From the IMG/VR virus record IMGVR_UViG_2526164609_000021: a stretch of DNA of 31,343 nt. The stretch is one strand, 5' to 3'. The notes beneath the pieces were generated by a model. The model made no database searches and was not told the origin of the DNA. It was given only the letters and a program-made list of their open reading frames with translations. This document shows, one piece after another, positions 21,778 through 30,851 of this stretch. The position numbers were made by a program, and so were the translations under genes. Each line of letters starts with the position of its first letter. Position 1 is the first letter of the stretch. Origin of the DNA: a virus (Duplodnaviria; Heunggongvirae; Uroviricota; Caudoviricetes).

Positions 21778-22563
21778 TTAGCACAACGGGCGTACAGCTT
21801 CGCGCATCCCTTTTTCAAGAATCGCATCCAGGTCATTAGCAACCTGCTCGACCAGACCAGGCACTTGCGTCAGGTCCTGCTCCCAGTGGTCTTTTTCTGC
21901 CAAAACAATCGCTACCAGTTCCGGGGTGCCGATAACACGGTCACGATGCTGGCTCCAGAGTTGCTGATAACGTTCCAGCCAGTGTGCATCGTCCTGTACC
22001 GGATATGTTTCTCCGTTACGCTCACCGCGATAGAAGGCAATCAATGCCGTTAATGCGAAAGTAAGGCGCGCCGGAAGTGTGCCGTTTGCCTTCTGCCCTG
22101 CCAGCAGCTGCGGCAGGATGCGGGTGCGGAACTTGGTCATACCGTTGAGCGCGATAGACAGCAGCTGATGCTTAATGTACGGGTTACGGAAACGCCCGGT
22201 GACTGCACTGGCGAAAGATTCCAGTTCATCACGAGGCAAATCCAGTACCTGAATAATTTCTTCGTCGATGGCTTTTTCAACGAATGCGCAAATTTCAGCA
22301 TCGTTCATCGCTTCACCTACGGTATCCAGCCCTGCCTGGAACGCCACCGGCACCAGCGCGGTGTGCGCACCGTTGAGGATTGCCACTTTGCGTTCTTTAT
22401 ACGGTTTAATATCGTCAACAATCAGCACATTGAGCGGATATTTGTCCAGGCGCAGCTCAGTCGCTAAGGATTTCGGCCCCTGAATCACAAACAGGTAAAA
22501 GTGTTCAGCGGTGTCGAGAAAACCATCGTGATAACCCAGTTCTTCTTCCAGTTTAGCCACTTC
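21778..22563 (-). pseudogene. uxaB: Altronate oxidoreductase UxaB, C-terminal about 260 aa only, fused in frame to a phage tube fragment
   Basis: [72 protein letters not shown]... to ...[12 protein letters not shown]; the N-terminal roughly 190 codons of uxaB are absent. Confidence 0.9.
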
Positions 22564-22686
22564 ACCACCCCGGTAGCTGTCGGTGTTGCGCGTCAGCTTA
22601 GGCAGAGTGACGGACGTCACATTACCCACTTCGTTTTCACCATCCACAAACAGCGTAAAAAAGCGAAGATGTTTTGGCACAGCCAT
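22564..22686 (-). pseudogene. P2-like tail tube protein, N-terminal 41 codons only
   Basis: [41 protein letters not shown] matches the P2-type tube N-terminus (MA.PRKLK...F.DG......V.LPKLTRK...YRG) and runs directly into uxaB codons. Confidence 0.7.
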
Positions 22687-23870: not shown

Positions 23871-24027
23871 AGCTTCAGCCCCTTGTATCCGTTAAATGAT
23901 TCAGCAACAATCATCACCCACCACGCGCGTAATCTCACCCCTGCGCCGTTCTCCCGCCACGGCGACAACAAAAAGCAGTACCCCCCTCCGCACGCACATG
24001 CGACCATGCCGCACAGGGAGGGAGCAG

Positions 24028-25137
24028 ATGACCGACACCACCATGCAATTGCTCAGTCAGGGCACGGCCCCCGTGAAAATGCCGGATTTTGATATTCTCT
24101 CGGAGGGTAAAACGCTGTCAGGCGTGGCGGAGCGCCTGATGAGCCTGTAACTGACCGACAACCGGGGATTTGAGGCGGACCAGCTCACCATCACGCTGGA
24201 TGATGCGGATGGTCAGTTGCAGCTACCGCCACGGGGCGCGCGTCTGACGGTTCTCATTGGCTGGAAAGGGGAACCGCTGACAGAAAAAGGCACTTACATT
24301 GTTGATGAAATCGCTCACGAAGGACCGCCGGACAGGCTGACTGTTTCAGCCAGAAGCGCAGATTTTCGGGATGAATTTAACGTTAAACGTGAGGTGTCCT
24401 GGCATGATGTGACCGTTGAGCGTGTGGTATCCGCCATCGCTCATCGGTACGGTCTGAAACCGCAAATCAGCGAAATGCTGATGGATATCGAAATCGACCA
24501 CGCCGACCAGACCGAAGAAAGCGACATGTCCTTTCTTACGCGCATGGCGGAAATGCTGGGAGCAATCGCCACGGTAAAAAGCGGCAATCTGTTATTCATC
24601 ATGCCAGGTGGTGGCGTGAACGCACAGGGGCAGCCGTTGCCCTCGTTCGCCATTACACGCAGCAGCGGCGATCGCCATCAGTTCCGCATTGCTGACCGCG
24701 AGGCGTATACGGGGGTACGCGCCTACTGGCTTGATCTTAATTACGGGAAAAAGAAAAAAGTCAGCGTGAAACGCCGCAAACCGCCAAAACCCAAAAAGGA
24801 GAAAAGCAGCAGTCGGGAAGGCGACTATATGGAAGGTGCGGAAGGCAACGTGTTTGTGTTACGCAAGACTTATCAGAACGAGCAGGCAGCAAGACGCGCA
24901 GCGGCGGCAAAGTGGCAGCAGCTACAACGCGGAGCCGCATCATTCTCCATCACGCTGGCGCGTGGTCGTGCAGAACTCTATCCCGAAATGCATGGCACAG
25001 TGACAGGCTTTAAAAGCGAGATTGATTATCAGGACTGGATTATTGCAAAAGCCGAGCACACCATTGATAACAGCGGCTTTACCACGCAGCTTGAACTTGA
25101 AGCAAAAATCCCGGAATGGATAGCAGAAACAGAATAA
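24028..25137 (+). pseudogene. P2 gpD-like late tail protein with in-frame TAA stop
   Basis: MTDTTMQLL...GVAERLMSL, then TAA at 24148..24150, then same-frame LTDNRGFEADQLTITLDDADGQLQLPPRGARLTVLIGWKGEPLTEKGTYIVDE... (gpD family signature). Confidence 0.75.
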
Positions 25138-25686
25138 ATCTCTTAAAAATATTATTTTTGAGATGTGCTTCTACACTGACAGTAAGAACAAAAGATAATG
25201 TATCAGCCCACTAGATGTCAGAGGTTGGGGCATCAACCAGATGCTAACAATAATACGGATGTTTTTCCCACATGACAGAGGAAGTCAAGTATAATCTTCA
25301 CAGTCCATCCCGTCCAAGGGAATATGACTCAATAGTAAAAGTTCCAGTTTAGTTAGTAGACCCACACTTTATAGAAGAGTAATTCATGATTGGACAATTT
25401 TTAAGTGCAACAGAGATTTTAGCAAAGAACTATGTTCGTAATAAAATGGTTAAAAATCCATTTTATTCGAATTTAAAATGGAATTTTATTGAAAAAAACA
25501 TCATAAGATTAACATCCTCACCGGTTAAATCAGTACTTTGCATATCAGCTTTTTCATTTGTACTACTTTATGTTGGATATTTAAACGAATTATTTATAAA
25601 AAATAATCTTTTACATTATTTCCCGTTTAGGCATTCATTAACCGAATGGCAAACAACCATTTTAAGTGGCCGGTAATGACTCCAAC

Positions 25687-26189
25687 TTACTGATAGTGTT
25701 TTATGTTCAGATAATGCCCGATGACCTTGTCATGCAGCTCCACCGATTTTGAGAACGACAGTGACTTCCGTCCCAGCCTTGCCAGATGTTGTCTCAGATT
25801 CAGATTATGTCGCTCAATGCGCTGAGTGTAACGCTTGCTGATAACGTGCAGCTTTCCCTTCAGGCGTGATTCATACAGCGGCCAGCCATCCGTCATCCAT
25901 ACCACGACCTCAAAGGCCGACAGCAGGCTCAGAAGACGCTCCAGTGTGGCCAGAGTGCGTTCACCGAAGACGTGCGCCACAACCGTCCTCCGTATCCTGT
26001 CATACGCGTAAACAGCCAGCGCTGACGTGATTTAGCACCGACGTAGCCCCACTGTTCGTCCATTTCAGCGCAGACAATCACATCACTGCCCGGTTGTATG
26101 CGCGAGGTTACCGACTGCGGCCTGAGTTTTTTAAGTGACGTAAAACCGTGTTGAGGCCAACGCCCATAATGCGTGCACTGGCGCGACAT
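25687..26189 (-). pseudogene. insB: IS1 InsB frame, split by a 1-bp deletion
   Basis: InsB is broken into two overlapping ORFs (25929..26189 and 25687..25980) at the shortened A-run. Confidence 0.8.
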
Positions 26190-26383
26190 CCGACGCCATT
26201 CATGGCCATATCAATGATTTTCTGGTGCGTACCGGGCTGAGAGGCGGTGTAAGTGAACTGTAGTTGCCATGTTTTACGGCAATGAGAGCAGAGATAGCGC
26301 TGATGTCCGGCAGTGCTTTTGCCGTTACGCACCACGCCTTCAGTAGCGGAGCAGGAAGGACATCTGATGGAAATGGAAGCCAC
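26108..26383 (-). CDS. insA: IS1 InsA
   Basis: Identical 91-aa InsA to copy 1. Confidence 0.9.
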
Positions 26384-28177
26384 GCAAGCACCTTAAAATC
26401 ACCATCATACACTAAATCAGTAAGTTGGCAGCATTACCTAAGTGGCCAATTGACAATTATTGGTATTGTATACCCCCTTGTTATAGGTTTAGTAAGTGTC
26501 TTATTCCCAAAAAAGGCAGATAGAAAAATAGCCCAAACTGCTTATCAGCGTTACTCAGGATTCATGCTTGCTGGACTCAGCGGGCTTTTCTTATCAGGAT
26601 TTATACTTCTCAGTGTACTAATTAAAACTGTCTTTGGAAGTTATCTTTATGGTATAGCTTGTCTAATCAGCATATTATGGCTTTTGATAAACATAGTTCT
26701 TTCTATTTGGTTCTTTATCGTGAGTCTTGAAATTCTTGATGATGTAAAACGGCAAATAATTATAAAGCGATACATTGCCTTCGAAATAGTAATGCCCCAT
26801 ATTTGTAACAAAATCTCAGCCAAGCTTAGGTTATACCCTATCTATCAAAAACATAACTATTCAAATTTAGAAATCAAGCAAGCCGATTACAAAGGAGAAT
26901 ACATATCTGTGGCTAGCAGTTATTCTAAGGAAGATGAGTTAAGTTTATATCACCGTCCTTTTCAACTTACTCTTAATCTTATTAATTACCAACTAAAAAA
27001 GAAGAATCATTTTGCGTCATTTGTCATTGGTGATAATCGTACAAAAGAAACAGAATCCACGGGTAAGATACTTTTTAGCGTTAAAAATATCAAACCAGAC
27101 AGCTTATTAATAAAAATACTTAAGCAATGTTTTTATAGGGCTCCGATTAAAGGAGGAGATTTTTCCGTAAGTCTTACAATGCAGGCTATAACAGCAGATA
27201 CGTATATGTATCTGCGGGATTCTGATCTCATTAGTTTTGACAATGCTATCTCTGCATTAATTAATAACTTTAATAATCTCTGCGATTTGTATTTTTTTCA
27301 AGATGATAATACCAACAATAACTTCTTACTGATCACTACAGAATTATTTGAACGGAGTTTTCAATATGAGTTTTCAGATGAAGTTTATAAAATATCAAAT
27401 AATTCCATGGATAAAATTAATCTTTCTGAAAGATTTTTTGATTTATGTCTTTGGAGCGGAGTGCGTATTATCAATAATAGAAAACATCTTATCAGCAATG
27501 AACTTTGTATCTATATGGGAATTACTCGTTCACAATGGTCAATATTAACAGAATGGTTCCGAAACAACCAATCACTCTTAAATGCCTCGCTTCGTTCACG
27601 TTATAATCGTATATTAAGAACCTATACCACTGTTTGGGAGCAATATCAAGAAAGCATAAACTTTCGTTTCTGCAATACAGAGAATTCAGATTTATTTGAA
27701 TTATTTTGCAAAACGCAACTACAAGAACTTCCATCGATGATTATTGATGCAACACAGACTCGCGATCCTTCTACTATTGATACAGCCGTCGATCTTATTA
27801 ACCGATGGCAGCACTCAATGAATATTGACAGCCATTCGGTAGAAAAATACAGTTACAAAGGCCAGCTTTTTAACCCGGTTTTTTTCATATCCAAAAAACT
27901 AAACTTCAATTCAGACAGAGAGTGGTTCAATATTGCCATCATAAATGCGTTGACTGACATGCGTATATGCACATGTCTTTATCTGACATCAAGAATCAAT
28001 ACTTCTGACAAACTAATGACACATTACATTAAACTTATTTTAGAGGGTAAACTTATTGACCAAACCGGTGGATATGAAACTCCCACTGAAGAAATTGATA
28101 ATGCAAGCCAACTAATCAAGATATTAATTAGAATCTGCCTGTGGACATGGTCTGAAAATATGGAGCACAATGGGTAG

Positions 28178-28489
28178 ATGAATAGTTTAGCAAGGCGTTT
28201 ACGTGACTATGATAAAACAGACATGGTGATGGGCAGAGTTTACAGTAATGTTTTTGACTGTGGATTTATTGATATGGAACAATCATGGATTCAGCTATTA
28301 TTAATTTTTTCTAACAAGAACGATAGCGTATCAAAAGAAATAAAAGAAGCAATAGAAAACAACTATATAACATATCGTGAGAAGCAACGACTCATTGGAG
28401 TATTATCAAAAATTTGTAACTCCATCGAATACACTAAAATCAAGCTGACTTTAACATTGGACGATCTCCAAACAAAAAAGAAAACTTAA
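28178..28489 (+). CDS. Gene B of the AT-rich cassette: small hypothetical protein (103 aa)
   Basis: ATG at 28178 directly abuts the TAG of gene A (tagatg); AT-rich; no hydrophobic helix; no homolog recognised. Confidence 0.5.
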   Translation: MNSLARRLRDYDKTDMVMGRVYSNVFDCGFIDMEQSWIQLLLIFSNKNDSVSKEIKEAIENNYITYREKQRLIGVLSKICNSIEYTKIKLTLTLDDLQTKKKT

Positions 28490-28515
28490 GAAAGTTGCTT
28501 CAAGAGCATATTAAC

Positions 28516-29280
28516 ATGCTAAAGAAAGATCTTGATATGAGACTTCAGGATGCTGCCATAGATGTACATCGACTAGATAGCACTGCACGTAAAACATCAG
28601 AACATCTTCGTAAACGCATCAAGAAAACGCTCCCTCTTTCACTTTTCAAATCTATTGATTTTAAGCAGGCTAGCGATTGTTTCACAAAACATAAGATATC
28701 TATTAAGATAGATAAAGAACCGTATGCCGAAGGAATAGAATCCATCCCTTATATCAATGAAGGTGATATTCAAGCAGACTTAATTCTCAAGGACATCCAG
28801 AGAATAATACTTTCAAATTTATTTAGCACTGGCTGTTCGCAACATACCGTAATAGAAGATTTCAATATGTTGATTGATCACATAAAATCATCTGCTGACT
28901 TGGCTGGCAAACTGGTTCTTGTGATGAGTAAAGAGATCTTTCAGCAATATAATCGTATGCTTTTCGATAATCCCAACCTCAGAGAACTAATGAGAAAAAA
29001 TGATGATGGCTCTATGAACATAACTACTGAATCCGGTACCCGTAAGGTTTACTTCTTACCATTTGTTAATCAACCATTTTCTCTTGTGGTAAAGGATAAC
29101 TACTTCACTAAATTAATTATTAGAGAATATGATAATAATAAGTTAGTAAATGTCACTTCAGAGAATATCAAAAGTGACTCAGATAAATTCAAGCTAACTC
29201 TTAACTATGAGTTGAATATAGTATTTGAAGGAAACGCTGATTTAAAAATAGCTCACTCGCAAAGAGTGACATCAGAATAA
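28516..29280 (+). CDS. Gene C of the AT-rich cassette: hypothetical protein (about 254 aa from the ATG; TTG at 28495 also possible)
   Basis: Same strand, about 26 bp after gene B; soluble, charged; no homolog recognised. Confidence 0.55.
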   Translation: MLKKDLDMRLQDAAIDVHRLDSTARKTSEHLRKRIKKTLPLSLFKSIDFKQASDCFTKHKISIKIDKEPYAEGIESIPYINEGDIQADLILKDIQRIILSNLFSTGCSQHTVIEDFNMLIDHIKSSADLAGKLVLVMSKEIFQQYNRMLFDNPNLRELMRKNDDGSMNITTESGTRKVYFLPFVNQPFSLVVKDNYFTKLIIREYDNNKLVNVTSENIKSDSDKFKLTLNYELNIVFEGNADLKIAHSQRVTSE

Positions 29281-29288
29281 TATCTTTG

Positions 29289-29319
29289 ACGGCGCTCCTT
29301 AGAGTGCCGTTCGTTTATT
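29289..29319 (+). terminator. Candidate intrinsic terminator after gene C
   Basis: Imperfect stem acggcgctc / gagtgccgt with loop ctta, followed by tcgtttatt. Confidence 0.35.
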
Positions 29320-29622
29320 AACTAATGCTAAAAATCATTATATAGAGAAAGTCATGTTTAAATCTTAGAGAATACAACCTAGAATAGTGCAAGCACTACA
29401 ATAAGAGAGGTCGCTATGTTCCGTTGTCCGCTTTGTGGCGCATCTGCCCGTATCCGCACCAGTCGTCCGGAAAATGATTCAAACACCGTGAGACAAAAGT
29501 ATTATCAGTGTAACAATCTAGAATGCGGCGTATGTTTCTCAACACTGGAAGCCTTCCACAAATTCACTTCAAAGCACGCCTCCCCCATTCACTCATCAGA
29601 GGGCATCCCGTTGGATTTGCCC

Positions 29623-30528
29623 CTATATTTCCAGACATCTGTTATCACTTAACCCATTACAAGCCCGCTGCCGCAGATATTCCCGTGGCGAGCGATAACC
29701 CAGCGCACTATGCGGATGCCATTCGTTATAATGCTCGAACGCCTCTGCAAGGTTCTTTGCTGCCGTTAACCCGTCTGGTTTGGGCATGATACTGATGTAG
29801 TCACGCTTTATCGTTTTCACGAAGCTCTCTGCTATTCCGTTACTCTCCGGACTCCGCACCGCCGTGTTCTTCGGTTCAAGTCCCAACATCCGGGCGAACT
29901 GGCGTGTTTCATTAGCCCGGTAGCATGAACCATTATCCGTCAGCCACTCCACTGGAGACGACGGAAGATCGTTGCCGAAGCGGCGTTCCACCGCTCCCAG
30001 CATGACGTCCTGTACTGTTTCACTGTTGAAGCCGCCGGTAGTCACCGCCCAGTGCAGTGCCTCACGCTCACAGCAGTCCAGCGCGAACGTGACACGCAGT
30101 CTCTCTCCGTTATCACAGCAGAACTCGAACCCGTCAGAGCACCATCGCTGATTGCTTTCTTTCACGGCCACTCTGCCTGTATGTGCCCGTTTCGATGGTG
30201 GTACAGCAGGTTTTCGCTCAAGCAACAGCGCATTCTGGCGCATGATCCGGTAAACACGTTTGGCATTGATCGCAGGCATACCATCAAGTTCTGCCTGTCT
30301 GCGAAGCAGCGCCCATACCCGACGATAACCATACGTGGGCAGCTCTCCGATAACATGGTGTATACGGAGAAGCACATCCGTATCATCAGTGTGACGACTG
30401 CGGCGGCCATCCATCCAGTCATCGGTTCGTCTGAGAATGACGTGCAACTGCGCACGCGACACCCGGAGACAACGGCTGACTAAGCTTACTCCCCATCCCC
30501 GGGCAATAAGGGCGCGTGCGCTATCCAC
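29623..30528 (-). CDS. insD: IS2 InsD (orfB, DDE transposase frame)
   Basis: 301-aa ORF ...[41 protein letters not shown]...[49 protein letters not shown]... Confidence 0.9.
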
Positions 30529-30851
30529 TTTTTTGCCCGTCCATATTCAACGGCTTCTTTGAGGAGTTCATTTTCCATCGTTTTCTTGCCGAGCAGGCGC
30601 TGGAGTTCTTTAATCTGCTTCATGGCGGCAGCAAGTTCAGAGGCAGGAACAACCTGTTCTCCGGCGGCCACAGCAGTAAGACTTCCTTCCTGGTATTGCT
30701 TACGCCAGAGAAATAACTGGCTGGCTGCTACACCATGTTGCCGGGCAACGAGGGAGACCGTCATCCCCGGTTCAAAGCTCTGCTGAACAATTGCGATCTT
30801 TTCCTGTGTGGTACGCCGTCTGCGTTTCTCCGGCCCTAAGACATCAATCAT
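30486..30851 (-). CDS. insC: IS2 InsC (orfA)
   Basis: [57 protein letters not shown]... Confidence 0.9.

Follow-up and report, generated by a model that had tools for sequence, protein, structure and literature searches.

The chromosomes of Shigella are known for a high load of insertion sequences (ISs), with 229–348 copies each, of which IS1 makes up 46–73% (Hawkey et al. 2020, PMC7373316). IS-driven pseudogenisation in these genomes is dominated by IS1, with hundreds of insertions per chromosome. P2-like phages in turn carry accessory genes in defence-gene slots, old/tin near cos and Z/fun in the tail genes, in which a single gene of low guanine-plus-cytosine (GC) content lies between P2 core genes and which are empty or hold other cargo in related prophages (Rousset 2022, PMC9122126; PMC13586616). 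Here, we describe an IS1 copy that interrupts a cargo gene of a P2-like prophage in a 31,343-nt stretch of viral DNA (IMG/VR record IMGVR_UViG_2526164609_000021, Caudoviricetes), referred to as the window in the following; all positions are those of the window unless a locus is named. In the first-pass annotation of the window this IS1 had been described as a simple, probably recent insertion into a "gene A" of a candidate system. Our analysis points with a probability of about 0.85 to a genuine IS1 in one long-dead cargo pseudogene of a decayed P2-like prophage remnant, and thus to ordinary IS-driven decay in Shigella, with a read-through open reading frame (ORF) as by-product and an intact gene that is likely anti-phage, a part that is graded separately below. 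Since Shigella chromosomes hold hundreds of ISs, mostly IS1, an insertion into a dispensable cargo gene is expected background; in comparison to the cases described in PMC7373316, the target is prophage cargo and not a metabolic gene. A description of this specific insertion was not found in the literature searched.

The element at 25672–26438 (minus strand) is 767 bp long, with its transposase on the minus strand, and is flanked by two copies of TAAGTGGCC, the left one at 25663–25671 (nt 278–286 of the gene) and the right one at 26439–26447. This 9-bp sequence occurs exactly twice in the 31-kb window, each copy abutting IS1, and the chance of a 9-bp match at that exact position is ~4⁻⁹. The ~23-bp imperfect terminal inverted repeats agree at 20 of 23 positions (left, IRR-type end at 25672–25694, GGTAATGACTCCAACTTACTGAT; right, IRL-type end at 26416–26438, given for the minus strand, GGTAATGCTGCCAACTTACTGAT). 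Over its full length the element exhibits 99.9% identity to 768-bp Shigella plasmid copies annotated as "IS1 family transposase". On the minus strand, insA (26108–26383) encodes 91 amino acids from a GTG start and insB' follows in the −1 frame with the typical A6C slippery motif (25687–26189); insB' is split here by a 1-nt deletion into frames of 86 and 97 aa. The copies in sister genomes are 768 bp long, and the product predicted from them has 232 aa and contains PF03811, PF12759 and PF03400. Length, terminal repeats, gene arrangement, 9-bp duplication and near-identity to annotated copies all place the element in the IS1 family, as a Shigella chromosomal isoform related to IS1A/IS1R; the sole difference from known copies is the 1-nt insB deletion as assembled, which is probably an error. 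In the intact alleles introduced below, TAAGTGGCC is present only once, at the empty site, and in-silico excision of IS1 together with one repeat yields ...TILSG|QLTIIG... in a single frame, identical to the uninterrupted alleles. The clean duplication and the restored frame reported in the first-pass annotation are thereby confirmed. The target of IS1 was a single accessory ("moron") gene of 1039 codons, which it entered between codons 95 and 96 with duplication of 9 bp.

The nature of the interrupted gene became clear from relatives without the insertion. Positions 24900–29700 were compared by megablast with 5,426 complete E. coli genomes, five of which, all closed, carry the locus without IS1 at 98.8–99.8% identity. 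In these five genomes the interval from gpD to ogr, the genes bordering the slot, is a single ORF of 3120 nt that encodes 1039 aa and is annotated as "MFS transporter" or "hypothetical protein". Intact single copies of 1039 aa are also found in S. boydii/S. sonnei and in P2-like prophages, so that the comparison with insertion-free genomes, proposed earlier as a check, confirms the empty site. Intact alleles include the protein records WP_264716223 and WP_049143931. Once IS1 is excised, no more than seven positions separate the window from E. coli VG38-53E1. Two of these create the gene ends of the first-pass annotation: a G→A change at 28176 converts TGG into TAG (W672*), and a run of seven A is shortened to six at 28474–28479. 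Homologues at larger distance show the same organization. In a word-index search nearly all of the best 120 of 183 homologues are single ORFs of ~920–1080 aa with at least 90% query cover, and a profile search gave 508 clusters at 50% identity, most of the matches listed being full length with ~1030–1150 aa.

None of these relatives keeps separate A, B and C ORFs. Because they encode a single ORF and the boundaries in the window are derived lesions, the 671-aa "gene A" and the two ORFs behind it are, judged by sequence comparison, fragments of one gene, and a multi-gene system does not exist at this locus. The earlier view that IS1 inactivates a candidate system is therefore correct with respect to inactivation, but what is inactivated is one 1039-codon gene, of which "gene A" is a part. 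All segments of the gene lie on the plus strand. Codons 1–95, including the first transmembrane segment (TM1), occupy 25386–25671, and the 96-aa ORF called there ends 5 nt inside IS1. Codons 96–671, with TM2–TM4 and the helical middle, extend over 26448–28177 and end at the derived TAG at 28175–28177 (TGG, W672, in intact alleles). Codons 673–1039 follow at 28178–29280, split here into ORFs of 103 aa (28178–28489) and 261 aa (28495–29280); a domain with the HK97 fold is encoded in this part at ~28640–29260.

For an estimate of the age of the lesions, ten loci (L018–L027) were compared, seven of them from closed chromosomes and one, L025, representing the window's own assembly. The left IS1 junction is identical in all ten and the right junction in nine; in the remaining locus, L024, it was lost to an IS1-adjacent deletion. 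The TAG at codon 672 is likewise present in 10/10 loci, that is, every IS1-carrying sister genome in the comparison also has W672*. The 96-aa product ending 5 bases inside IS1 is on record in exactly this form, under the name "MULTISPECIES: hypothetical protein [Shigella]" and with a UniProt entry from S. dysenteriae; it was found on 74 contigs, and 120 blocks of the collection index it, with Shigella as the named source. The exact IS1/gene junction gave no match in the GTDB species-representative genomes. As IS1 and W672* are common to all sister Shigella genomes compared, the gene is, on this comparison, a pseudogene since before these strains diverged. The Shigella copy differs from two intact alleles by six derived substitutions, none of which is synonymous: Q116P, in an invariant column, E427D, G573V, W672*, V710I and C961R, in a nearly invariant column. 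Six non-synonymous changes are the pattern that is expected of drift after inactivation. Further decay followed in some sisters. In L019 and L023 the same pseudogene was hit again by IS1, this time in inverted orientation and with a separate 9-bp duplication (about 8476–9261 of these loci), and L024 exhibits a 1.5-kb deletion that begins at the right end of the first IS1 (7054–7058). At the level of strains the insertion is thus not recent. It is simple insofar as the 9-bp duplication is clean, but it is not the sole lesion, with W672* and five derived amino-acid changes beside it.

Two further differences are confined to the window. L025 corresponds to contig AKNG01000040.1 of the Shigella dysenteriae draft GCA_000268105.1, to which the window is 100% identical over 11,958 bases. 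In comparison with the closed genome L018 (CP026807), L025 shows no substitution and exactly two homopolymer gaps over 12.3 kb. One is a run of three A at 26010–26012 in insB of IS1, where the sisters have four; the other is the shortened A6 run at 28474–28479 in the cargo gene, which makes the frameshift between ORFs B and C. Among the ten loci the 767-bp IS1 and the A6 run occur only in L025. Since both contractions are present only in this draft and are its sole differences from the closed genome, they are most simply explained as errors; the B/C split and the insB frameshift are probably sequencing errors that produce false ORF boundaries. As assembled, insB would make the element a non-autonomous copy, but a sequencing error is the more likely explanation given the sister sequences. 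The true state of the lineage, as reconstructed from these assemblies, is codons 1–95, IS1, codons 96–671, TAG and codons 673–1039.

The first-pass annotation had also pointed out a 637-aa ORF that starts inside IS1 and reads into the gene without the first TM segment. This ORF is indeed contained in the ORF list (26264–28177, plus strand); its TTG start lies within IS1, antisense to insA, and it continues through codons 96–671. The predicted product lacks not only TM1. It stops at codon 672 and is thus also without the C-terminal 367 residues including the HK97-fold domain, an architecture that is shared by no member of the family. We regard it as a mechanical by-product of the insertion. That the IS1::gene ORF or the downstream fragment is a functional unit driven from IS1 is highly improbable, even though the ORF exists and gene callers do predict products of 537–637 aa. 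They do so in the sister genomes with four different starts, and a scan for consensus promoters found no plus-strand promoter-like site in the right-hand 630 bp of IS1, the sole such site inside the element (25779–25808) being 455 bp upstream of the ORF start. Fragment-length matches occur in the family, but without consistent boundaries, and none is shown to be a complete gene. Substitutions at invariant positions and the sisters in which the fragment was deleted or interrupted again also speak against a retained function.

The surroundings identify the gene as phage cargo. It forms an island of 32–36% GC between flanks of 53–56% GC, in the order P2-type gpD (PF05954), cargo gene, ogr, hok and ihfA/pheT; the E. 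coli prophages occupy the same chromosomal site. The host prophage is P2-like and integrated next to ihfA/pheT, with its cargo in the gpD–ogr slot. This slot is empty in the prophage of E. coli EC476 and holds an unrelated gene in B7A. Near-identical copies of the cargo gene (98–100% over the matched residues) were found on eight IMG/VR viral contigs, one of which stops at residue 659 of the protein; two of the eight contigs are 35–37 kb long and carry the gene near the contig end. Because the slot varies among E. coli prophages and viral contigs carry copies, the gene is a genuine accessory gene of P2-type prophages. Similar to the P2 defence-gene slots of PMC9122126 and PMC13586616, a low-GC single gene lies between core genes in a slot that is empty or differently filled in relatives. 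In contrast to them, the gpD–ogr slot near attR is not one of the two main hotspots, and its cargo matches no PADLOC model. Literature searches by accession and keyword returned no description of the gpD–ogr slot as a defence hotspot.

The prophage itself is decayed. The upstream border of the slot, the baseplate hub gene gpD, is located at 24217–25137 (plus strand), and the downstream border, a gene for an ogr/delta-like late-gene activator, at 29416–29611 (plus strand). The latter is cut after ~codon 65 by an IS2 of 1331 bp (29612–30942, minus strand) with a 5-bp duplication, CCCGT, and on account of this insertion ogr is also dead. P2-like homology begins only at 22563, from which it follows that the remainder of the prophage is gone, removed by a deletion or a rearrangement. 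At this end, a 302-aa ORF (21778–22686) fuses ~41 P2 tail-tube codons to a mannitol-dehydrogenase C-terminal domain. In the gpD region (23896–25137) a 306-aa ORF with a TTG start is preceded by a separate 84-aa ORF, and one E. coli relative has a 369-aa gene; gpD may also be truncated or frameshifted.

In total, the window contains three IS1 copies, one IS2 and one IS4-type transposase. The IS1 copy at 1–753, cut by the window start, is near-identical to the copy described above and has an intact A4 run. A third copy at ~6700–7474 is an isoform with ~10% divergence, the end of which (7452–7474) terminates a lambda-type gpJ tail-tip gene (7453–9849). The IS4-family transposase (448 aa, 18496–19842) has the lambda-like tail region on one side and chromosomal genes for a methyltransferase and a bestrophin on the other. 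Beside the lambda-like tail genes, an ipaH-type effector of the type III secretion system with leucine-rich repeats and an NEL E3 ligase domain is encoded at 1071–2822 and marks the genome as Shigella or enteroinvasive E. coli.

The intact protein could not be assigned to any described family. Searches of Pfam, NCBIfam, PADLOC and PHROGs gave nothing significant for it or for 31 family members, and nine distant members with divergent N-termini had no match in Pfam. PADLOC-DB v2 returned no match for the protein, and among the 31 members only isolated matches with E > 0.01 in single members; a sequence-profile search of the PDB gave none at E ≤ 1, and capsid families none at E ≤ 0.1. Literature searches by accession and keyword revealed no description of the family. 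Its distribution is patchy and covers Gammaproteobacteria and one Desulfobacterota genome. An AlphaFold2 model from a 31-sequence alignment (predicted local distance difference test (pLDDT) 80, predicted template modelling score (pTM) 0.64) shows four hydrophobic helices in residues 45–196, an all-helical middle and a C-terminal alpha/beta domain. In the model this domain has the HK97 fold, which is defined by an E-loop hairpin, a spine helix and P and A domains. The densest invariant blocks of the family, Q96–K118 and Y131–F147, are found in the TM module, with Q96, P105 and G109 in the invariant motif of TM2, and IS1 is inserted exactly at a block start. We therefore describe the family as uncharacterised, with a TM module and, according to the model, an HK97-fold C-terminus. 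Its domain shows no sequence-profile similarity to known HK97-fold proteins (major capsid proteins, encapsulins, Ccm of SaPIbov5); in contrast to these it is fused behind ~780 residues including four TM helices, and scaffold, protease and portal genes are absent nearby.

For the intact gene, the RefSeq name would suggest a transporter of the major facilitator superfamily (MFS), or possibly another housekeeping membrane protein. Apart from the product name "MFS transporter" given by the Prokaryotic Genome Annotation Pipeline (PGAP), only the hydrophobic N-terminus is in line with this, and we consider it very improbable. Neither MFS_1/Sugar_tr nor any other Pfam or NCBIfam family matched, there are ~4 TM helices instead of ~12, followed by ~840 soluble residues, and low GC content, mobile-element and defence-island contexts and the patchy distribution also speak against it. 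With neither Pfam, NCBIfam nor topology in its favour, the name (L001, 6487–9606; L002, 3487–6606) is probably an annotation error propagated through the cluster. SNIPE (bioRxiv 10.1101/2025.11.03.685801) resembles the family in standing alone, in its inner-membrane anchor and large cytoplasmic part, and in being carried on mobile elements. Its own features, however, are one TM helix, DUF4041 and a GIY-YIG nuclease, none of which was detected here, and an identity with SNIPE was rejected due to the different architecture.

The neighbourhoods of divergent homologues are variable, recurrently rich in defence genes and without a conserved partner, as is typical for cargo of defence islands and mobile elements. 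On large plasmids, an AAA_21-type ATPase and RES occur next to the gene. Other neighbourhoods show HNH, FRG and DUF3800 together with a P4-type primase, RES with Mrr_cat, or TIR_2, HNH_2 and DUF3800; patatin and an EEP nuclease were also found. PrrC-type passengers sit embedded in type I restriction-modification (R-M) operons. A similar position is taken by a 24%-identical homologue in Aliikangiella marina (L047, 3001–12449), flanked by hsdS and hsdR in a type I R-M operon with abutting ORFs that share one strand. By analogy, this position is typical of defence passengers, although it is seen in one species only and the homologue has no anticodon-nuclease or ATPase domain.

Based on the combination of TM module and HK97-fold domain and on the defence-rich, variable neighbourhoods, we infer that the intact protein could be a stand-alone, membrane-anchored anti-phage or exclusion protein, an assignment to which we give a little less than even odds. 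A plausible mode of action would be that the capsid-like domain engages phage capsid or procapsid proteins, with the conserved TM module as anchor or effector. HK97 homologues encoded by satellites, Ccm among them, divert the assembly of capsids. Bacterial immune systems are commonly triggered by major capsid proteins (Avs7/8/10, Lit, CapRel; PMC12803255). A capsid-directed mechanism through the HK97-like domain, which depends on the predicted structure, nevertheless has to be called rather unlikely at present. The further-reaching proposal of a new single-protein, membrane-anchored family against phages or other mobile elements, in which a domesticated HK97 domain, coupled to the highly conserved four-helix membrane module, recognises, co-assembles with or poisons capsid proteins and of which the Shigella copy is a fossil, appears possible but doubtful.

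Several observations weigh against the reading of the locus as a long-dead pseudogene with a likely anti-phage ancestor. Among the genomes compared, none with only IS1 or only the nonsense mutation was found, which bears on the order of the two lesions, and the error status of both 1-nt deletions is derived from the comparison of sister assemblies rather than from reads. The cargo gene was not found by tblastn in deposited phage genomes. The similarity to HK97 is at the level of the fold only, with 5–13% identity, no sequence-profile match and predicted structures as basis; two neighbourhoods (Shewanella, Psychrobacter) contain only housekeeping genes among the ORFs scanned, and the literature searched contained neither a paper nor an experiment connecting the family with phage defence. 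Lastly, a fitness cost instead of neutral decay may lie behind the independent breaks of the gene in S. flexneri (by another IS1), E. coli DEC6A and Salmonella.

With respect to the insertion itself, the alternative is that a multi-gene system is intact apart from one simple, recent, strain-level IS1 insertion in its gene A, which selection may have favoured because the system is toxic. The clean duplication and the restored frame are real, and the gene was independently inactivated in other lineages. Nevertheless, such a scenario is very unlikely, as it would require a system where there is one 1039-aa ORF, and a recent event where the insertion is common to 10/10 assemblies, is accompanied by a shared nonsense codon and five further derived amino-acid changes and has left its fragment on 74 contigs. 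Moreover, the intact allele is tolerated in E. coli, S. boydii and S. sonnei. An assembly artefact could be suspected since the window originates from a draft with likely homopolymer errors. With the same left junction in nine other assemblies, including closed chromosomes, and the same right junction and 9-bp duplication there except in L024, the chance of this is practically negligible.

More weight has to be given to the question of whether the loss of the gene was adaptive, due to cost, autoimmunity or conflict with the Shigella lifestyle, and not neutral decay. At least four independent inactivations of near-identical alleles are on record. Besides the insertion at codon 95, S. flexneri has an IS1 at ~codon 380 (P0278), so that 380 residues of the protein are followed by the translation of an IS1 end; E. 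coli DEC6A (P0300) has a frameshift behind residue 281; and in Salmonella (P0290) an internal deletion joins residue 220 to 993. Membrane-anchored defence effectors are, in addition, often costly. On the other hand, the surrounding prophage is degraded as well, Shigella contains hundreds of IS insertions (PMC7373316), and intact alleles persist in five closed E. coli genomes and several Shigella assemblies (S. boydii, S. sonnei). We thus regard adaptive loss as unlikely. The suggestion in the first-pass annotation that the IS inactivation indicates a costly or toxic system is not needed in an IS-rich genome in which the whole prophage is degraded, but the repeated independent inactivation leaves some room for it. 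The repeated breaks fit a rapid turnover of prophage cargo, with a modest chance that the gene is costly.

The insertion itself represents textbook genome decay, and its pieces are already annotated in public genomes. The value of the comparison is in part corrective: a supposed three-gene system is one pseudogene, a second lesion is shared by the lineage, two further ones were probably introduced by the assembly, and the intact gene bears an unsupported RefSeq name. The more notable by-product is a sizeable uncharacterised family combining a conserved TM module with a predicted HK97-fold domain, whose members occur in prophages, on plasmids, in defence islands and in a type I R-M operon. Should this family be a defence that uses a capsid-derived domain, it would introduce a novel mode of phage sensing or interference.

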